A stretch of DNA of 64,000 bases from Spirochaetia bacterium (GCA_965203055.1 OZ241863.1:128001-192000); one strand, 5' to 3'; counted from the stretch's first letter, positions 3,703 through 36,502 are shown. The notes: generated by a model not told the origin, from the letters alone. Numbers and translations are program-made.

Positions 3703-3882
3703 TCAGATTATGTCGGTGTCACGCACCGTCTTGCGCTTCGCCTTGCGGGCGTTCTCCACGGCCTCGTCACACACCTTGCGTACTTTCTCCGACAGCGCCT
3801 CGGCCACCGAGGCCGCCGTGTTCATTCCCGCGTCTTTGATGTAGCTCTTGACCTTGGAAGTAACTATCAAGATTTCTGCCAT
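3703..3882 (-). CDS. Bacterial histone (histone-fold singlet, Bd0055/HMf-like), 59 aa
   Basis: MAEILIVTSKVKSYIKDAGMNTAASVAEALSEKVRKVCDEAVENARKAKRKTVRDTDII carries the V-x-SKVK helix-1 start, MNT loop and RKTVxxxD L2 signature; AAGGAG Shine-Dalgarno just upstream of ATG 3882. Confidence 0.9.
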   Translation of the reverse strand: MAEILIVTSKVKSYIKDAGMNTAASVAEALSEKVRKVCDEAVENARKAKRKTVRDTDII

Positions 3883-3922
3883 GCTGTGAGCTCCTTGTGC
3901 TGGATGGATAGTGTCAGGAACC

Positions 3923-3959
3923 GACGCGCGAACCATACCCGAAAGGCAAGGCGCGCGTC
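3923..3959 (-). promoter_or_regulatory. Inverted repeat/hairpin upstream of the histone gene, overlapping a possible promoter
   Basis: GACGCGCG (3923-3930) and CGCGCGTC (3952-3959) form a perfect 8-bp stem with further inner pairing; TATGGT (-10-like) lies inside on the minus strand. Confidence 0.35.
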
Positions 3960-4012
3960 ACCGGTCCTGCTGCGCTTGTTGCGCTTTGCGCGGGCGTGCT
4001 TGCCAAGCCAAC

Positions 4013-4840
4013 TCACGCTCCCGGCACGCGGCCCAAGCGCGCCCCGCAGCGCCGGCAGAAGGCGGCATCCAGCTCGTGGCCCCGGCGGCCGCAGGCCGGA
4101 CAGCGCCGGCGGTTGCGGGCATGGATGGTCTCGGACACCACCTCGGCGGTGACCAGTCCGGTGGGTACGGCGATGATACCGTAGCCCATGATCATGATCA
4201 CCGCGGCGATGCTCTGGCCCAGCCCGGTGCGCGGCGTGACATTCCCGTAGCCCACCGTAGTGAGGGTCACGATGGTCCAATACATGCTTTGCGGGATGCT
4301 GGTAAAGCCGTTCTCCTCGCCCTCGACCACGTAGATCAGCGAGCCCAGGATCACCGCAATGATCAACACGCTGAACAGGAACACCGTGATCTTGCGCCGA
4401 CTGGCGCGCAGCGCGCCCAGGATCACCGCGGCTTCCGCCATGTAGGGAACCAGCTTCAGAACCCGAAACACGCGCAGCACGCGCAGGAGCCGCAACACTG
4501 CCAGGTAATGGGTTCCGGGCAGCACCAGTGCGAGGAACGCCGGCAGCACCGCCAGCAGGTCGATGATCCCGAAGAAGCTCGCCGCATAGCGCTGCGGCTG
4601 GCGAACCGCGGTCAGACGCAGCAGATATTCGACCAGGAACACGCCGGTGAACACCCACTCGGCCGCTCGCAAAGCCGAAATCCAGTTCGCGGTTGCGGCG
4701 GAACTCTCGGCCAGCACCACCGCGACGCTGGCGATGATGACGGCAATCAGGACCACGTCGAAGGTGCGGCCGGCGCGGGTATCGGACAGGAAGATGATGG
4801 TATGCAGCCGTTCGCGCCAGTCGGGGAACGATTGCTTCAT
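4013..4840 (-). CDS. Voltage-gated potassium channel (Ion_trans) with C-terminal zinc ribbon
   Basis: S4 LRLLRVLRVFRVLK; selectivity filter TTVGYG; CPAC...CRRC. Confidence 0.93.
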   Translation of the reverse strand: MKQSFPDWRERLHTIIFLSDTRAGRTFDVVLIAVIIASVAVVLAESSAATANWISALRAAEWVFTGVFLVEYLLRLTAVRQPQRYAASFFGIIDLLAVLPAFLALVLPGTHYLAVLRLLRVLRVFRVLKLVPYMAEAAVILGALRASRRKITVFLFSVLIIAVILGSLIYVVEGEENGFTSIPQSMYWTIVTLTTVGYGNVTPRTGLGQSIAAVIMIMGYGIIAVPTGLVTAEVVSETIHARNRRRCPACGRRGHELDAAFCRRCGARLGRVPGA

Positions 4841-6773: not shown

Positions 6774-7235
6774 CTAACCGCTCTCCGGCTGCCGCATAGT
6801 ATACCAAACGCCGCGCCCGAGGGACAGCTTCTTGGTATTCGGGATCTCGGGGGTGGTGCCCTTGCGGTACCCCCAGAACCGCTCGATCACTTCTTCCGAG
6901 AAGTCGATCTGAGTCATCTGCTGCAGCTCTTCGATCTGTTCCCACGACGCCTTCCTGGACTTCTGCTGCGCAGGAGTCATCTCGCGGATTTCTTCCTCGT
7001 ACTGCTCGATCAGGGAATCGATCATCTCCGCCAGCTCCTCCTTGCCGACGCGCGGCGCCTCGGGAGCCACCGCGGCGGTCGCGGCCGGGCTCCCCGCCGG
7101 CTCCGGGGCGTCGGCCGCCGCCTCCTCCGGGGCCGGCTCCGGGGCGGCCTCCGGCGGCGGGTCCGGCTTGCGGCGGAAGGTGCGGTAGAGGACGTAGACG
7201 GCGACTACGACGCCGGCCAGGAGCGCCCAGGTCAC
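6774..7235 (-). CDS. Hypothetical membrane-anchored protein
   Basis: N-terminal TM helix, Pro/Ala/Glu linker, acidic helical C-terminal region; protein-like composition. Confidence 0.7.
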   Translation of the reverse strand: MTWALLAGVVVAVYVLYRTFRRKPDPPPEAAPEPAPEEAAADAPEPAGSPAATAAVAPEAPRVGKEELAEMIDSLIEQYEEEIREMTPAQQKSRKASWEQIEELQQMTQIDFSEEVIERFWGYRKGTTPEIPNTKKLSLGRGVWYTMRQPESG

Positions 7236-15220: not shown

Positions 15221-17035
15221 TCAGCCGGGGAACACTGCCGCCGGGCGGCCCCGGGTTGCGGTCCGCAGGCGGAACAGGCCGCCGGCATGCGGCTGCGCGG
15301 CCAGCGCCGGCCCATCCTGCCCGTAGCGCGCAGTGGTGACGTAGAGCTGATCCAGCGCCGGTCCCCCGAACGCGCACGAAGTAGTCAGGTTGGCCGGTAC
15401 CGGGATGGTCTGCAACAGCGCGCCGGAGGTCGGATGCCAGCGCGTCACGCAGCCGCCGCCCCAGTGCGCCACCCACAAAGTTCCATCGAGCGCGACCGTC
15501 ATGCCGTCAGGGACTCCGCGGTCCGCCGGCAGCGTCACCGCGGGGCGCGGATTGGTGATGTTGCCGCTGGCGGCATCGTAGTCGAAGGCGGTGACCTGCC
15601 GGGTCAGGGAATCGATGTAGTACATGGTGCGGCCGTCGGGGCTCCAGTCCATGCCGTTGGTGTTGTCGATGCCGCTCAGGCGCCTGGTCACGGTCAAGTC
15701 TGGCTCCAGGCTGTACAGGTGGCCCAGCGTGTCGGTGGCGCGGTCGACGGCAATCGACCCGAACCAGAAGCGCCCGGCGGGGTCCACCTTGCCGTCGTTG
15801 AAATGGGTCTCGGGACGATCCGCCTCGATGGCCGCGACGCGCGTCCTGGCGCCGCTGACCGGGTCCAGGTGATAGATGCCCGAGGCGGTCGCCGCCAGCA
15901 GCCCGCCCCCCGCGCGCGGCACCACGCAGCCAACGAACTCGCCGACCTCGACCCGGCCGGCAAGGCCGGAGGCGGGTTGGTAGTGGTGCACGATTCCGGC
16001 GAACAGATCGACCCAGTAGAGCGTCCCGGCGGCGGCGTGCCACACGGGTCCTTCGCCCAGTTCGGCGCGCGCGTCGAGCACCAGTTCCGGCTCCGGCTCT
16101 CGCTCCGGCGCGACCGGCGCCGCCCGCACGCGGGCGGGCGCGGCCCGGGTCCCGCCGGCCGGCGCCGTCCCGGCGCCCCGGGCGCGTTCGGCGCGCTCCT
16201 CCCGGCGCCAACACCGCCACTGTTCCCGTTCCGGGTACTCGCCGCGGTCGCCGGACGCACGCCGCGCCAGCAGCTCCCGGTCCGGCTCGAACAGCCGCGC
16301 CACGCGCCGGTCGCCGCGCGCGCGGGCGGCGCGAATCTCGCGCTGCATGCGTTCCATGCCGTAGGCGTCCCGCTTCGGCAGCCAGCACTTGGTGTAGAAG
16401 TAGCTGACGAAGATACGCAGGCGGCCGCTGCAGTTGCCGGAGGTGCTGTGCAGCAGGGAAGAGTGGATCAACACCGTGTCGCCCGCCGCCAGCTCCACCG
16501 CCTGCTCGCCGGCCTGGATCTTCCCAGGGCCCTCGCTGCCGACCAGCGCGCCGCCGCGGTGGGAGCCGGGAATCACCCGCAGCGGGCCATATTCGGCTCC
16601 CTCCTGCAGGTAGGTGAGCACGTTCACCGCGTTCGGCGGCAGGTAATCATCGGTCCAGCCGGGCAGGCTCCACATGTCGCGGTGCCAGGCGCGCACCGCG
16701 CGCGCTTCGGTTGCGCTGACCGGCGGCGTGACGGCGACCTGCAGACTGTCGAAGCCCACGAACGGCCCCATCAGCTCCTCCAGGAGATCCAGCATCGCCG
16801 GCGCCACCAGCGCGGGGAGAAACAGGTCGGGGCGCTCCTGCAGCAGGCCGCGCAATACCGCCCGCGGCTGCCCCACGCCGCCCCCGCGCTGGTCCTCGCC
16901 CCACTCGCGGCGGTAGCGCTCCTCGAACACCTGCCGCCACTGCTCCAACCAGGCCGCGTTGAAGCCGCGCAGGATGGTGTAGCCGCGCTGCTCGAACTCC
17001 GCCACCCGGGCCGACAGGGTACCGTTCACCGTCAT
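15221..17035 (-). CDS. Fusion of PhyH-like Fe(II)/2-oxoglutarate dioxygenase and SMP-30/gluconolactonase
   Basis: N-half has WHRD, LRVIPGSH and LLHST; C-half has LGEGPVW, FNDGKVDPAGRFW, NGMDWSPDG, PDGM and TSCAFGG; ATG 17035 overlaps the sirtuin stop (ATGA). Confidence 0.82.
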   Translation of the reverse strand: MTVNGTLSARVAEFEQRGYTILRGFNAAWLEQWRQVFEERYRREWGEDQRGGGVGQPRAVLRGLLQERPDLFLPALVAPAMLDLLEELMGPFVGFDSLQVAVTPPVSATEARAVRAWHRDMWSLPGWTDDYLPPNAVNVLTYLQEGAEYGPLRVIPGSHRGGALVGSEGPGKIQAGEQAVELAAGDTVLIHSSLLHSTSGNCSGRLRIFVSYFYTKCWLPKRDAYGMERMQREIRAARARGDRRVARLFEPDRELLARRASGDRGEYPEREQWRCWRREERAERARGAGTAPAGGTRAAPARVRAAPVAPEREPEPELVLDARAELGEGPVWHAAAGTLYWVDLFAGIVHHYQPASGLAGRVEVGEFVGCVVPRAGGGLLAATASGIYHLDPVSGARTRVAAIEADRPETHFNDGKVDPAGRFWFGSIAVDRATDTLGHLYSLEPDLTVTRRLSGIDNTNGMDWSPDGRTMYYIDSLTRQVTAFDYDAASGNITNPRPAVTLPADRGVPDGMTVALDGTLWVAHWGGGCVTRWHPTSGALLQTIPVPANLTTSCAFGGPALDQLYVTTARYGQDGPALAAQPHAGGLFRLRTATRGRPAAVFPG

Positions 17036-17859
17036 GCCGACCCACCGAGGGCGCGGACCAGCGCCGGCAGGAGCACGGTCACGTCGCCCTCCAGCCGCAG
17101 ATCGGCAAGCGCGTCGTGGGCGGTCGGACCGCGGTTGATGACGGCGTACCGGGCGCCGTGCTGCGCCGCCCGCAACGGCACGTCCGCGGCGGGCCGCACC
17201 TCCAGCGTGGAACCAATCGCCAGCACCAGGTCGGCGCGGCCCGCGGCGCGGAACGCGCGCTGCAGCTCGGCCGGCGGCAACGGCTGGCCGAACGATACGG
17301 TCGCCGTCTTCAGGAACCCGCCGCAGGCCTGGCAGCGGGGACAGTTGCCGGTGGCCTGGAACTCCTCCAGCGCGGGCTGCGGCGCGCTGCGGGCGCCGCA
17401 TGCCAGACACTCCACCGCCCGGTTGGTGCCGTGCAACTCGATGATCCGCTCGGCCTCGTGGCCGGCATCCCGGTGCAGGCCGTCCACGTTCTGGGTCACC
17501 AGGACGTCCAGCTTGCCGAGCCGGTCCAGCTCCGCCAGGGCGAGGTGGGCGGCGTTGGGCCGCGCCCGGGCGAACTCCCGGTGCCCCTCCGCCTTGTACT
17601 GCCAATGCGCGCGGCGCGCCGCTTCGGAAGCGACGAAGTCCTGGAACAGCACCGGCCGGCGCCGCGTCCACTGTCCGCCCGGGCCGCGAAAGTCGGGGAT
17701 CCCCGAGGCGGTGGACATGCCCGCTCCGGTGAACACCAGCACGCGCCGGGCGGCGCGCACCGCCCCGGCCAAGTCCGCTACCTGCGCCGCCGCCTCTTCC
17801 TCGATCACCGCTGCCGCCGCCTGCCAACCAATCTTGCCCGGTTCGAGCCCCTCCTGCAA
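17032..17859 (-). CDS. Sir2/CobB-family NAD-dependent deacylase
   Basis: Motifs FTGAGMSTASGIPDFRG, TQNVDGLH, ELHG, CxxC...CxxC and IGSTL; start uncertain. Confidence 0.93.
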   Translation of the reverse strand: MQEGLEPGKIGWQAAAAVIEEEAAAQVADLAGAVRAARRVLVFTGAGMSTASGIPDFRGPGGQWTRRRPVLFQDFVASEAARRAHWQYKAEGHREFARARPNAAHLALAELDRLGKLDVLVTQNVDGLHRDAGHEAERIIELHGTNRAVECLACGARSAPQPALEEFQATGNCPRCQACGGFLKTATVSFGQPLPPAELQRAFRAAGRADLVLAIGSTLEVRPAADVPLRAAQHGARYAVINRGPTAHDALADLRLEGDVTVLLPALVRALGGSA

Positions 17860-17895: not shown

Positions 17896-18237
17896 TCAGC
17901 GGTGGTCGCCGTCGCCCTGCAGGGTGCCGGCCGCCTGGCGCCGCGCCAGTTTGCGCAGGTTGTGCTCCGCCACCTCCTGCAGCGAGAGATCCAGGTCGGT
18001 GCAGATCTGGGCCAGGTACCACAGCACGTCGCCAAGCTCGCTCTTGAGGGCGGCGCGATCCTCGCCGCTGATCACGCCGCCCTTGTCGCGGAAGATCTTC
18101 TTCACCTTGCCGGCCACCTCCCCCGCTTCGTTGGTCAGGCCCAGGGTCGGGTAGAGGATGGCGTGGTCCACCACCACCCGGTTCCAGGTGCGGCGCGACT
18201 GGCGCTGATAGCGGGCGAAGGTTGCGGCATCTGCCAT
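17896..18237 (-). CDS. MazG-like nucleoside triphosphate pyrophosphohydrolase
   Basis: Motifs LGLTNEAGEVA, ELGDVLWY, N..KL..R and GDGDHR. Confidence 0.9.
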   Translation of the reverse strand: MADAATFARYQRQSRRTWNRVVVDHAILYPTLGLTNEAGEVAGKVKKIFRDKGGVISGEDRAALKSELGDVLWYLAQICTDLDLSLQEVAEHNLRKLARRQAAGTLQGDGDHR

Positions 18238-22256: not shown

Positions 22257-23618
22257 TCAGGTGCGCTGCCGCAACTCCAGCAACGCCGCGGAGGGCCGCA
22301 CCGGATAGGGGGCGGCGTCCTGCAGCGCGCGCACCGGCGCCGGCAGGCTGGCGAGGCTGGCGGCCGCGCGCGCCCGGACCGCCGCCAGCGGCTCCCGCGC
22401 CGCCACCCGCGTTCCCGCGCGCAACTGCGGCCGCAGCAGCGGCACGCGCCGTTCACCGCGGCCGGCGCCCGCGGCGAGCTCCTCGGTCTCCTCCGCAAGG
22501 CAGAGCAGGTCGCGCGCGGCGTGCCGCGCCGCGTAGCAGCGCACCACCTGCTTGATTCCGGGCAGGGTAGCCTTGCCCGGCTCCTCCGAGCGCTTGGCAA
22601 TCGCGCGCCAGCCGCCGCCGCGGCGCACCGCCACCAGCTTGTACACCCCGCCCAGCGCGGGGTCGCCATGGGCGGTGACCAGGCGCGTACCGACGCCCCA
22701 CGCGTCGATCGGCGCGTTGGCGTTGCGCAACTCGGCAATGCGGGTCTCGTCCAGATCGCTCGACACCACGATCTGGGCCTCCTCGAGTCCCGCCGCGTCC
22801 AACTGCGCCCGCACCGCGCGGCTGAGATGGTCGAGCGCGCCACTGTCCAGGCGCACGCCGAAGCCGCGCCGGCCGCGCGCCTGCAGCGCGGCCAGCACCG
22901 GGATGGCATGAGGAATCCCGCTGTCCAGGGTGTCGTAGGTGTCGACCAGCAGTATCGCCCGCTCCGGGTAGAGCTCGGCGAAGCGGGCGAACGCGTCCTG
23001 TTCGTCGCCGAAAGCCTGGATCCAGGAGTGCGCCATGGTACCGCTGACCGGGATGCCGTAGCGGGCGCCGGCGGCGAGGTTGGAGGTGCCGTGCACGCCG
23101 CCGACGTAGGCGGCGCGCGCCGCCGACAACGCCCCGTCCAGCCCCTGGGCGCGGCGCAGCCCGAACTCGAACACCCGCCCCCCGCCCGCGGCCTGCACCA
23201 CGCGCGCCGCCTTGGTGGCGATCAGGGTCTGGAAGTTGACGATGTTGAGCAGCAGACTCTCCAGGAGCTGCGCTTCGGTGAGGCGCGCGGTGACCCGCAG
23301 CAGCGGCTCGCCGGGGAACATCGCGGTCCCCTCCGGCGGCGCGTGCAACGCGCCCTGAAATCGCCAGCGCTCCAGGAACTGCAGGAACTCGGCGCGAAAC
23401 AACCGCAGTCCCTCCAGGTACTCCAGTTGCCGCGCGCTGAAGCGCAGCGCCGCGGCCGCATCGACGACCTCCTCCAGACCCGCCGCCAGCGCATAGCCGC
23501 CGCCGAACGGCGGGCGCCGGAAGAACAGTTCGAAGGCGACCTCGGGATCGCGGCGCTGCAGGAAGTAGCCCTGCAGCATGGTGAGCTGATAGAGGTCGGT
23601 GGCGAGCGCCGAGACCAC
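22257..23618 (-). CDS. pncB: Nicotinate phosphoribosyltransferase
   Basis: Motifs TDLYQLTM, EFGLRRAQG, GTMAHSW, LVDTYD, VRLDSG and GVYKLV; start about 23618-23636. Confidence 0.93.
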   Translation of the reverse strand: MVSALATDLYQLTMLQGYFLQRRDPEVAFELFFRRPPFGGGYALAAGLEEVVDAAAALRFSARQLEYLEGLRLFRAEFLQFLERWRFQGALHAPPEGTAMFPGEPLLRVTARLTEAQLLESLLLNIVNFQTLIATKAARVVQAAGGGRVFEFGLRRAQGLDGALSAARAAYVGGVHGTSNLAAGARYGIPVSGTMAHSWIQAFGDEQDAFARFAELYPERAILLVDTYDTLDSGIPHAIPVLAALQARGRRGFGVRLDSGALDHLSRAVRAQLDAAGLEEAQIVVSSDLDETRIAELRNANAPIDAWGVGTRLVTAHGDPALGGVYKLVAVRRGGGWRAIAKRSEEPGKATLPGIKQVVRCYAARHAARDLLCLAEETEELAAGAGRGERRVPLLRPQLRAGTRVAAREPLAAVRARAAASLASLPAPVRALQDAAPYPVRPSAALLELRQRT

Positions 23619-23632
23619 GCCGGACGCTTCGA

Positions 23633-24232
23633 TCAGGAAATGCGGATTCCCGCGGCGCGCATCTCCGCCAGCGCCCGGGCCACGTTGCCGGCGGGCTGAT
23701 CCACGCCGCGGCTGGCGCCGGCGAACAGTTCGACCTCGAACCCCAGGCGCGCCGCATCGAGGGCCGAGTACGCTACGCAGTAGTCGGTCGCGAGGCCGCA
23801 CAGCGCCACCCGCCGCACCCCCAGCGCCCGCAGATAGCCGGCCAAGCCGGTGGCGGTGCGGCGGTCGTTCTCGAAGAACGCGGAGTAGGAATCCAGCGCC
23901 CGGCGCGTTCCCTTGCGCAAGATCAGGTTGACGCGGCGGGTGTCCAGCGCCGGATGCAACGCCGCTCCGGCGGTGCCCTGCACGCAGTGGTCGGGCCACA
24001 GCGTCTGCTCGATCCCGCCAATGCGCACCGTGCCGTAGAGGGCGGCGCGAGGATGCTGCGAGACGAACGAGCAATGCTTGCGCGGATGCCAGTCCTGGGT
24101 CGCGACCACCAGGTCGTAGGCCGTCATCAGGCGGTTCGCCGCCGCCACCACGGCGTCGCCGTCAGCCACCGCCAGGGCGCCGCCGGGGCAGAAGTCAATC
24201 TGCACGTCGATGACCAGGAGCGCGCTACTCAT
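23633..24232 (-). CDS. pncA: Nicotinamidase/pyrazinamidase
   Basis: Motifs IDVQIDFCPGGAL, TQDWHP, WPDHC, KG...DSYSAF and GLATDYC; ATG 24232 or 24238. Confidence 0.95.
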   Translation of the reverse strand: MSSALLVIDVQIDFCPGGALAVADGDAVVAAANRLMTAYDLVVATQDWHPRKHCSFVSQHPRAALYGTVRIGGIEQTLWPDHCVQGTAGAALHPALDTRRVNLILRKGTRRALDSYSAFFENDRRTATGLAGYLRALGVRRVALCGLATDYCVAYSALDAARLGFEVELFAGASRGVDQPAGNVARALAEMRAAGIRIS

Positions 24233-34334: not shown

Positions 34335-36502
34335 CGGGCGCCAAGGATGCGAATGTCAAGGGCGGCCGGCAGACGGTCAAGGCGATCCCATGCTAAGGGG
34401 GACTGGACTGTCGAGAACTGAGTTGATAGGCTTAGGCCATGGACTCTCGGAAGGTGCTCGACGAACCCCTGCCCCAGGCCACGCCCCCAGGGTTTGCGCT
34501 CGACGAAGTGGAGGTGCGCCTCGCACACCCCCACGAACGCGTCCAGTGGGACGCGCTGATGAACCACCATCACTATCTCGGCTTCACCCGCTTCGCCGGC
34601 CGCGGCCTGCGCTATCTCGCCGTCTGGCGCGGCCGCTGGCTCGCGCTCGCCGGCTGGCAGGGCGCCGCCCTCAAGTGCGCACCCCGCGATCGCTGGATCG
34701 GCTGGCGCCGCCCCGAAATGTTCCGCCGCCTCCATCTGGTGGCCAACAACACCCGCTTCGTGGTCCTGGGCCAGCGCGGCGTGTTTCCCAATCTCGCCTC
34801 CAGGATGATGGCCGCGATGCTGCGCCAACTCAGCGCCGATTGGCAGCACCACTACGGCCATCCGCTGCTGGTTGCGGAGAGCTTCGTCGATCCGCAGCGC
34901 TTCTCCGGCACCCTGTATCAGGCCGGCAACTGGACCTACGTCGGCGACAGCAAGGGCTACGCGCGCAGCAACGGCCACTACACCGACCCTCACGGCCACC
35001 CGAAGCGTCTCTTCGTGCGCCCCTTGCGGCGCGATGCCCGGCGCATCCTCAGCCAGTCCGGCAAGCTGCCAGACTGCTGGCGGGCACGGCCCGAACACCC
35101 AGACGATAACGCCGCAGTCGACAAGCGCAGTCTGTACGCCGAACTCGAAGACCTCCCCGACTACCGCCGCGGCCAGGGGCGCAAGCACTCCATTGCGACC
35201 GTGCTGACGGTCTACCTGTTGGCTGCGCTGGGCAACTTTCGCGGCCCGGTCGCGGCGGCGGAGTATGCTCAGAGGCTCACGCAGAAGGACCTCAAAGATA
35301 TTGGCGCGTGGCGCAATCGGCGCTCCGGGCGCTACCATCCGCCCCCCAAGTCCACCATCCACCGCGTGCTCATGCACGCCGATACCGAGCACCTCGAAGC
35401 GATCCTGCAGCGCTATTCCGAGTCCCGCCTGCCACCGCCAGCTCCGCGCCAACGCCGCGCCATCGCGGCCGACGGCAAGCGCATTCGCGGCGCCAATCGC
35501 CACGGCTCGCTACGCTACGAGACCGCCACCCTGGTCGAGCACGGCACCGGCGTGCCGCTCGCCAGTCTCAACTTCCACGACGAGAATGGCGAGTTGGCCG
35601 CCGTCGGCGCCCTGCTCGAGACCGTCCCGATCGCCGGCGCGGTGATCACCCTCGATGCCCTCCACACCACCCGCGACACCGCCACCAACATCGTCGAACA
35701 GCACCAGGCCCACTATCAGATGACCGTCAAGCAGAACTCCTCCGAGACCTACGAGGCACTCGTCAGCATCCCCTGGGAACACGCTACCGCGCGCTTCTCC
35801 ACAGCGTCCGAGAAGGCCCATGGCCGCATCGAACGGCGCCACATCGAAGTTATGACCCTGCCGCCCAACACCCTCAACTACCCGCACGTCGCGCAGGTGT
35901 TCCGGGTGCGCCGCGACCGCCACGTGCTCAAGAGCGGCGAGAAGACCGTTACCTACGCCTACGGCATCACTTCGGTGCCGGCCTCCGAAGCCTCTGCGGA
36001 GCAACTGCTGGCCTGGAACCGCGGCCACTGGGCGATCGAGTCGAAGAACCACCATCGCCGCGACCGCACCTTGGCTGAGGACGCCTGCCTGGCGCGGCGC
36101 CACGCGGCGCCTGCCAACCGCGCGGTGTGCAACAACCTGGTGCTGGCACTGATCCTGCGCTACCGCCGGTGGACCAACGTGGCGTCGGCACTACGCTACT
36201 TTACCGGGCGCCCGAAGGTAGCCATCAAGGCCCTCATGGCGCCCGGCTGAGGCTGGCGCAGCCCGCTTCGAGCGCTCCAACCACTCCTCGAACCACTCCC
36301 GGCCCGCCCCGCGCTCCCATCCGGTCGCCGTGCGGGGCCAACTGTGCGACTACGGTCGGGACCAAGCCCTCAGGTGCGCCACCCGCTGTCCCATTCCCCT
36401 CCGCCGGAGGCAGCCGCTAGGTTCTCATCTTGATTGTCGCTCGCCACTCCGGCCTCCGCGTCGGCGCGGCTCCGACCAGCCTGGCCTTGGCCACGCCGCT
36501 AC
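34331..36502 (+). mobile_element. Insertion sequence (ISAs1-like), boundaries tentative
   Basis: Transposase flanked by imperfect inverted repeats: GTAGCGGGCGCCAAGG (34331-34346) versus the reverse complement of 36485-36502, GTAGCGGCGTGGCCAAGG; no target duplication seen. Confidence 0.55.
34439..36250 (+). CDS. ISAs1-family DDE transposase with N-terminal DUF4338 (DruA-like) domain
   Basis: N-term HHYLG, RDRWIGW, NNTRF and ESFVDPQRFSGTLYQAGNW; C-term DYRRGQGRKH, AADGK, TLDALH, HGRIERR and HWAIESKNHHRRDRTLAED. Confidence 0.9.
   Translation: MDSRKVLDEPLPQATPPGFALDEVEVRLAHPHERVQWDALMNHHHYLGFTRFAGRGLRYLAVWRGRWLALAGWQGAALKCAPRDRWIGWRRPEMFRRLHLVANNTRFVVLGQRGVFPNLASRMMAAMLRQLSADWQHHYGHPLLVAESFVDPQRFSGTLYQAGNWTYVGDSKGYARSNGHYTDPHGHPKRLFVRPLRRDARRILSQSGKLPDCWRARPEHPDDNAAVDKRSLYAELEDLPDYRRGQGRKHSIATVLTVYLLAALGNFRGPVAAAEYAQRLTQKDLKDIGAWRNRRSGRYHPPPKSTIHRVLMHADTEHLEAILQRYSESRLPPPAPRQRRAIAADGKRIRGANRHGSLRYETATLVEHGTGVPLASLNFHDENGELAAVGALLETVPIAGAVITLDALHTTRDTATNIVEQHQAHYQMTVKQNSSETYEALVSIPWEHATARFSTASEKAHGRIERRHIEVMTLPPNTLNYPHVAQVFRVRRDRHVLKSGEKTVTYAYGITSVPASEASAEQLLAWNRGHWAIESKNHHRRDRTLAEDACLARRHAAPANRAVCNNLVLALILRYRRWTNVASALRYFTGRPKVAIKALMAPG

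Follow-up and report, generated by a model that had tools for sequence, protein, structure and literature searches.

A short histone gene and its upstream region

The window, meaning here the whole 64,000-nucleotide stretch of DNA that was analysed, has a GC content of 70.8% and comes from a host lineage of uncultured Spirochaetia of ~70% GC. A small histone gene lies on its minus strand, with a Shine-Dalgarno (SD) sequence and promoter-like boxes ahead of it (Table 1). The product, MAEILIVTSKVKSYIKDAGMNTAASVAEALSEKVRKVCDEAVENARKAKRKTVRDTDII (59 aa), has a mass of 6.5 kDa, a pI of 9.25 and 12 lysine plus arginine residues against 9 aspartate plus glutamate residues. The original prediction had described a basic ORF of this size with an AAGGAG SD of its own; both are present as described, and the residue pattern it gave fits the translation exactly.

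Table 1. Positions of the histone gene, its upstream elements, the segments of the protein model and other genes of the window
Feature	Position	Strand	Remarks
Histone gene	3703..3882	minus	59 codons + TGA; ATG 3882..3880, TGA 3705..3703
Shine-Dalgarno AAGGAG	3891..3896	minus	Direct reading; 8 nt upstream of the histone ATG
18-codon extension of the 77-aa ORF	3883..3936	minus	Outside the protein; probably 5' leader and promoter
Putative -10 hexamer TATGGT	3932..3937	minus	TATAGT in most relatives; from conservation
Putative -35 hexamer GTGACG	3956..3961	minus	18 nt from the -10 box; within the conserved TGACGCG block; inferred
Model alpha1	residues 2-17		59-aa histone
Model L1	residues 18-25		59-aa histone
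Model alpha2	residues 26-47		59-aa histone
Model L2	residues 48-54		59-aa histone
Model alpha3	residues 55-57		One turn
Ion-transport protein gene	4013-4840	minus	Voltage-gated type; Pfam Ion_trans, E 6.8e-35
Gene of the 153-aa protein (hyp153)	6774-7235	minus
Sir2-family deacetylase gene	17032-17859	minus
MazG-like pyrophosphohydrolase gene	17896-18237	minus
Nicotinate phosphoribosyltransferase gene	22257-24074	minus
603-aa ORF	34439-36250	plus	DruA-like N-terminal region (Pfam DruA, E 4.4e-21) and DDE_Tnp_1 transposase domains

The ion-transport protein gene is located directly upstream of the histone gene on the same strand, and its product ends in a short Cys-rich C-terminal tail (DUF7575, below cut-off). 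This pairing is kept in eight of nine syntenic loci, with a conserved promoter-like element between the two genes. In the 153-aa protein, a hydrophobic N-terminus is accompanied by a linker rich in Pro, Ala and Glu; the protein matches no Pfam or NCBIfam model and stands beside the L31 gene in 7 relatives (59-93% identity). Farther along, the Sir2, MazG-like and nicotinate phosphoribosyltransferase genes flank two ABC exporter genes, which gives a NAD-salvage/deacetylase neighbourhood 13 kb from the histone gene. Apart from the 603-aa ORF, nothing resembling a mobile-element gene was noticed in the window.

All 44 candidates from a word-indexed protein search are histone homologues of 59-60 aa with 76-97% identity. 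When these are aligned with the window protein (45 sequences, the window clade), 24 columns are invariant, and dN/dS values of the histone gene against three orthologues are 0.07, 0.18 and 0.13. By these sequence comparisons, the ORF is a real gene under purifying selection and more than a chance ORF. No second histone gene was found in the window: among 739 six-frame ORFs of 40 aa or more, the profile of this clade (A1) matched only the gene itself, the next best having an E value of 1.8.

The gene has been called with a product of 77 aa, which the original prediction regarded as a mis-start. A 77-aa ORF does exist, as the same frame is open up to an ATG at 3936..3934, and this ATG falls within the putative -10 box. 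Several observations rule out the longer start. All 44 homologues have 59-60 aa. In 9 of 9 syntenic relatives, the corresponding start codon (ATG or GTG) is preceded at the same spacing by an (A/G)GGAG box, and a stop closes the frame 1-23 codons before that codon, within 11 codons at seven of the nine loci. The upstream peptide is unconserved among the syntenic loci, and the PF00808 score is 28.6 bits for the 77-aa form versus 29.0 for the 59-aa form. The call of 77 aa is therefore a mis-start, as had been proposed. The Leptospira perolatii gene hlp, also over-called at 77 residues, offers a parallel: according to PMC12701072, an ambiguity between starts for 63 and 77 residues was settled by the position of the SD.

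The region upstream of the 59-aa start probably contains a promoter of the histone gene's own, to judge from the alignment of the window with nine syntenic loci. Boxes of the form TGACGCG-N17/18-GGTATAGT-like are present in 8 of the 10 rows, while the other two rows (L007 and L009) do not align there. From these boxes, transcription would be predicted to begin near 3925, leaving the ATG of the 77-aa ORF out of the transcript. Since a consensus scan for sigma-70 promoters found none, the window boxes matching at 8 of 12 positions and staying under the scan threshold, this promoter candidate comes from conservation alone. A consensus scan for intrinsic terminators likewise found none, and the RNA after the histone stop folds no better than shuffled sequences (z = +1.41).

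Histone fold and oligomeric class

The protein matches Pfam PF00808 (CBFD_NFYB_HMF) over residues 25-58 with 29.0 bits (cut-off 21.4, E 1.3e-6). In phmmer searches against solved structures, HBb/Bd0055 of Bdellovibrio bacteriovorus (8fvx/8cmp) was matched over residues 1-59 (E 2e-10), followed by HLp of L. perolatii (9qt0, E 6e-9), the archaeal face-to-face (FtF) histone HTkC (9f2c, E 0.009) and HMfB (E 0.015, over residues 13-58). An AlphaFold2 (AF2) model was built on 70 sequences, namely the window protein and the unaltered translations from 69 of 80 loci in related genomes; L047, L068, L069, L071-L074 and L077-L080 were excluded as identical or near-identical copies or for uncertain starts. 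The model has a pLDDT of 87.1 and consists of two helices, the second of 22 residues, and a one-turn third helix (Table 1). Foldseek against the PDB returned HBb (9ezz_B, TMq 0.82), HLp (9qt0_A, 0.82) and HMfB (1a7w, 0.72), then eukaryotic and other histone-fold proteins, although with a query of 59 residues only one match reached E <= 0.001.

A histone fold, likeness to Bd0055 and a single fold with an RKTxxxxD clamp had all been claimed in the original prediction, which also suggested searching against CBFD_NFYB_HMF and Bd0055. Both searches gave matches, with Pfam, AF2 and Foldseek in agreement; the HBb match covers the full length, the solved HBb sequence agrees with the one given in that prediction, and the clamp residues R50...D57 are present in a single fold. 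The third helix has three residues in the AF2 model, within the 3-4 residues that, together with an alpha2 shorter than the nucleosomal one, define alpha3-truncated histones according to Schwab et al. 2024 (PMC11390915). In the model, the window protein is thus an alpha3-truncated histone fold as defined by these authors.

Annotation models treat such genes unevenly. NCBIfam NF043032 (archaea_histone) scores the protein at 28.7 bits, below its cut-off of 50, so that such genes will be labelled hypothetical, and the NCBI pipeline would probably leave the histone gene unnamed. JGI labels on homologues of the window histone read 'histone H3/H4'.

The archaeal histones HMfA and HMfB (1a7w, 1b67, 5t5k) share with the window protein the histone fold, the RKT...D clamp, the L2 motif and membership of PF00808. 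The sequence relation is marginal, however, and unlike these proteins the window protein has a shorter alpha2, a one-turn alpha3 instead of about 10 residues, and none of the four-helix-bundle tetramer interface. Without the long alpha3 and the four-helix-bundle interface, a hypernucleosome is not expected of it.

Since 2024-25, short bacterial histones have been divided into two classes, a dimer class and a face-to-face tetramer class (PMC12701072). The latter, represented by HLp, is described as stably tetrameric, with about 60 bp of DNA wrapped (PMC12701072; PMC11390915). The window protein resembles members of both. Its alignment with HBb (8fvx, 8cmp, 9ezz, 9f0e) runs from end to end at 49% identity and includes the N-terminal MAE-L-VTSKVK, the lysines of alpha1, MNT in L1, a conserved Cys in alpha2, RKTV with the R-D clamp, the one-turn alpha3 and the predicted handshake dimer. 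Differences from HBb are an L1 shorter by one residue, T56 in place of HBb R57, A23 in place of S24, A48 in place of D49 (which augments the clamp in HBb), and the extra basic residues K47, K49 and R54. The host differs as well, being a GC-rich spirochaete instead of the predatory Bdellovibrio, and the window protein is known from sequence alone. HLp (9qt0-9qt2) comes from a spirochaete, as the window protein does, and is 44% identical over 55 residues; the two share a short alpha2, the one-turn alpha3, the length of L1 and a TVR-TD tail, and six of the nine DNA-contact residues in the HLp-DNA crystals are identical in the window protein. The gene neighbours differ: the ion channel and FolC in the window, and SMC, methionine aminopeptidase and DUF350 for HLp, according to PMC12701072.

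These resemblances allow the reading that the window protein is an HLp-like face-to-face histone, in which two dimers would join into a torus-shaped tetramer wrapping about 60 bp, as in Leptospira. In its favour, the host is a spirochaete, L1 lacks the extra residue of HBb, the RKTVRDTD tail is HLp-like, and HLp is nearly as close as HBb both in structure, with equal TMq values, and in single-sequence comparison (38.8 versus 43.4 bits). Against it stand the residues that hold the tetramer together. PMC12701072 gives the HLp interface as R49, S52, N53, R55, T61 and F63, which align with N44, K47, A48, R50, T56 and I58 here, so that two of six are kept. Loss of two residues, R48/N52 in the numbering of Schwab et al. 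and R49/N53 in HLp, is reported to mark bacterial dimers (PMC11390915), and exactly this arginine and asparagine are gone from the window protein, in which N44 is invariant throughout the 45 clade sequences. Among the FtF residues R49, N53 and R55, only R55 is kept, as R50, which is also the clamp arginine. Profiles likewise favour HBb over HLp, by 10 bits with the window-clade profile (HBb 60.4, HLp 50.1, HTkC 26.3 bits) and by 24 bits with a wider profile (86.5 versus 61.7 bits). We regard a face-to-face tetramer as improbable for this protein.

Oligomer modelling, which had been proposed along with the original prediction, predicts a dimer. A four-copy ESMFold2 model scored 0.88 versus 0.01 for the best control; among proteins of solved structure, this mark is attained by 20 of 30 known as pairs and by 1 of 23 known as single chains. 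Contact agreement between runs is 98% or higher, and the partner pLDDT is at least 87. It predicts an antiparallel handshake dimer with contacts 34:34, 21-23 with 52-53, and 7:7. Because the HBb and HLp dimers have already been solved, this result shows likeness to them. Between dimers, no contact is listed with confidence: confident contacts are given only between copies 3 and 4, in a procedure calibrated on two copies in which one partner is scored and unlisted residues are no evidence of no contact. This counts to that extent against the HLp-like tetramer, and the classes themselves were defined by an AlphaFold-multimer procedure, whereas the model here is from ESMFold2.

On sequence and model together, the protein is therefore filed as an HBb-type 'bacterial dimer' with hybrid traits and not as an HLp-type tetramer, an assignment made here by phmmer and profile best match to a class that was originally defined by CLANS sequence clustering. 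The lysines of the class logo, K11, K13 and K17, correspond to K10, K12 and K16 here, and the motif R50-K51-T52...D57 is present; K10, K16, R50, K51, T52 and D57 are invariant in the 45 clade sequences, and conservation of K12 is 90% or higher. The original prediction had grouped Bd0055 and the Leptospira histones together. Likeness to both holds, but a single class does not, as one is a dimer and the other an FtF histone, and the window gene goes with the dimers.

Distribution and inheritance of the gene

A pattern-based scan with one genome per species, answering the survey of related genomes suggested earlier, yielded 101 relatives; 80 of the loci were retained. The nine closest relatives, with histones 75-93% identical to that of the window, are MAGs of uncultured Spirochaetia, Spirochaetales or Spirochaetaceae whose loci have 67-72% GC and whose contigs or chromosomes reach 7.8 Mb. 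They share a gene order with the window that runs Nudix, CoA transferase, hyp153, L31, MurA, ion channel, histone, FolC, IMP cyclohydrolase-like, Tag and NYN/OST-HTH. All 11 genes of the block are found in three of them (L001-L003), 10 in another three (L005, L006, L008) and 4-6 in the rest (L004, L007, L009), where the loci of L007 and L009 end at contig ends. The remaining 71 of the 80 loci have only the histone in common with the window block. Across the syntenic relatives, identity is 75-93% for the histone, 84-94% for L31, 55-87% for MurA and 47-78% for FolC, which places the histone on a level with L31 and above MurA and FolC. There is no conserved partner gene across the family, since the commonest neighbour family occurs at 15 of 80 loci and is clade-specific, in a comparison of ORF calls that are crude and include spurious high-GC frames.

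The low GC content of the gene, which the original prediction had noticed, is borne out at 0.571 versus 0.708 for the window. Together with the patchy distribution of bacterial histones reported by Hocher et al. 2023, it could be taken as the trace of a foreign or mobile gene acquired recently. The deficit is confined to codon positions 1 and 2 (0.53 and 0.39), however, while GC3 is 0.80 against 0.82-0.93 in ten neighbour genes. The low overall value arises from a composition rich in Lys, Ile, Asn and Thr, as in the adjacent L31 gene (0.594 overall), and with GC3 so near that of the neighbours it is no mark of foreign origin, which is ruled out as an explanation of the low GC. The locus speaks against acquisition as well, with synteny kept in nine species and housekeeping genes as neighbours. 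In a quick maximum-likelihood tree of 70 sequences, the midpoint root leaves 43 of the 45 Spirochaetota rows together on one side (support 79), and the phylum labels require 5 changes against a minimum possible of 4; many forks are unresolved because the alignment has 62 columns only. No tblastn match at E <= 1e-3 was found in 50,697 phage and 72,556 plasmid records. A recent foreign or mobile origin is thus most improbable. Synteny, GC3, the tree, the missing phage and plasmid matches and the lack of a shared neighbour family indicate a vertically inherited, stand-alone chromosomal gene, in line with the housekeeping context, as opposed to a mobile island, that had been proposed at the outset.

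Two loci of the tree, L043 and L048, are titled 'Spirochaetaceae' (GC 0.70-0.71), but their histones nest inside the Myxococcota clade, and neighbour families of theirs recur at Myxococcota loci; either a MAG has been mislabelled or mis-binned, or a transfer has taken place. In P0098 (202 aa), a protein from a close relative, the first 36 residues are those of this histone and unrelated Arg/Ser-rich sequence follows, which has the look of a frameshift or of a gene call running on in an assembly of high GC.

An exhaustive search with the window-clade profile returned 877 cluster representatives at E <= 1e-3, of which 296 had E <= 1e-10. Among the best 150, two complete HBb-type folds follow one another in 33, with SK-K and RKTV...D in both halves, a count that is not a frequency because ranking by summed score favours doublets. 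These tandem histones (P0046, P0047, P0049-P0051, P0053, P0057 and others) have about 125-150 aa, and some are longer with N-terminal extensions. In a 2026 review (PMC13088155), the double histone folds of bacteria are said to be rare, of Aquifex/Thermus type, DUF1931-like and without DNA-binding residues. HBb-type doublets may be under-described.

DNA contacts and a possible role in the nucleoid

To our knowledge, HBb and HLp are the only bacterial histones that have been characterised biochemically. In MD simulations of HBb (PMC11317129), the DNA backbone is contacted chiefly by N22, R57, S9, T53, T8, S24, K10, K12, K52 and K16, in minor grooves throughout, and the same work (Hu et al. 2024) states that the DNA-contact residues are conserved in the phyla that have the bacterial dimer class. 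Eight of the ten are identical in the window protein (T8, S9, K10, K12, K16, N21, K51 and T52) and are invariant or nearly so in the alignment of 45 clade sequences. The two that changed are S24 and the second-ranked contact, R57. As these two are replaced, HBb D49 is lost, and the RKTVRDTD tail comes nearer to the RTTVRPTD of HLp, the contact geometry may differ from that of HBb.

With eight of ten HBb contacts kept and the clamp intact, the likeliest mechanism by analogy with HBb is that individual dimers bind DNA non-specifically, bending and compacting it. Two chains would form an antiparallel handshake dimer; in the computed model, the two alpha2 helices cross at residue 34 and each L1 is paired with the L2 of the partner chain. 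As in HBb, each dimer would bind the DNA backbone without sequence preference, with contacts made by the N-terminal end of alpha1 (T8, S9, K10, K12, K16) and by the paired L1/L2 loops (N21, K51, T52), while the R50-D57 clamp would hold L2 in place. Binding would bend the DNA and thereby compact the nucleoid in the manner of HU or IHF, and no DNA-wrapping tetramer or hypernucleosome would be assembled. The gene has a strong ribosome-binding site of its own and probably its own promoter. Its vertical descent at a fixed position in the clade is what a housekeeping nucleoid protein would be expected to show. Taken as a whole, we consider it fairly probable that the gene encodes an alpha3-truncated dimer histone of HBb/Bd0055 type whose dimers bend DNA and compact the nucleoid, expressed from its own ribosome-binding site and probably its own promoter, and inherited vertically at a fixed locus.

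The DNA-binding mode of HBb is itself disputed between end-on coating (PMC10627809) and bending (PMC11317129), and an HBb-type dimer in the window might bind end-on and coat DNA into a straight nucleohistone filament. The window protein belongs to the Bd0055 family, for which PMC10627809 reports an unconventional DNA-binding mode in vitro, and it carries an extra basic patch, R46-K47-A48-K49-R50-K51. For bending by individual HBb dimers, the evidence in PMC11317129 comes from crystals with DNA, from MD and from single-molecule work. The sequence favours neither mode, and we hold end-on coating to be unlikely.

Another possibility is that the protein is a specialised histone-fold protein, acting as a local regulator or as the partner of another protein, with HU or other nucleoid proteins packaging the bulk of the DNA. 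Schwab et al. (PMC11390915) warn that a prokaryotic 'histone' is not necessarily a global organiser, and bacterial histones are reported often to coexist with other nucleoid proteins (PMC11317129). No Bac_DNA_binding (HU/IHF) match was found among the 40 window ORFs scanned with Pfam, a set of GC3-filtered ORFs from 64 kb that carries no weight for the genome as a whole. Conservation of the histone at the level of ribosomal proteins, the strong ribosome-binding site, the conserved backbone-contact residues and the lack of a conserved partner gene argue against a local role, as does the high abundance reported for HBb and the Leptospira histone (PMC11390915; Hocher et al. 2023). A specialised role thus has a low probability in our judgement. 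The statements of the original prediction that the host has histone-based chromatin and that this is a core nucleoid protein are an inference by analogy, as abundance, nucleoid association and essentiality are properties known for Bd0055 and the L. interrogans histone (PMC11390915; Hocher et al. 2023).

The protein could also be a functional intermediate. It combines an HBb-type alpha1 and L1 with an HLp-type L2-alpha3 tail (RKTVRDTD) and the basic patch RKAKRK, and it lacks R57, a major contact in HBb; on this reading it could bind DNA or oligomerise in a way peculiar to itself, for example by dimers that stack on DNA in a concentration-dependent manner. We think this unlikely. If true, the histone could be the principal nucleoid organiser of genomes of 5-8 Mb and 70% GC, possibly replacing HU as reported for Leptospira.

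According to Hocher et al. 2023, histones are found in less than 2% of bacterial genomes, and the bacterial dimer class has already been placed in Spirochaetota, class Spirochaetia (Schwab et al. 2024, PMC11390915; PMC11317129). A search of the full text of articles returned no study of a Spirochaetia-class histone beyond these surveys. The window gene is an expected addition to a catalogued family, no surprise to a specialist, and by itself it opens no new question. What it adds is a well-supported and correctly delimited histone from an uncultured high-GC spirochaete clade, in which the gene is vertically inherited, strongly constrained and stand-alone on the chromosome. For annotation, the value lies in a true product of 59 aa instead of 77 aa. 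With its mixture of HBb and HLp features, the protein would be a reasonable third candidate for a biochemical comparison of dimer and tetramer histones.
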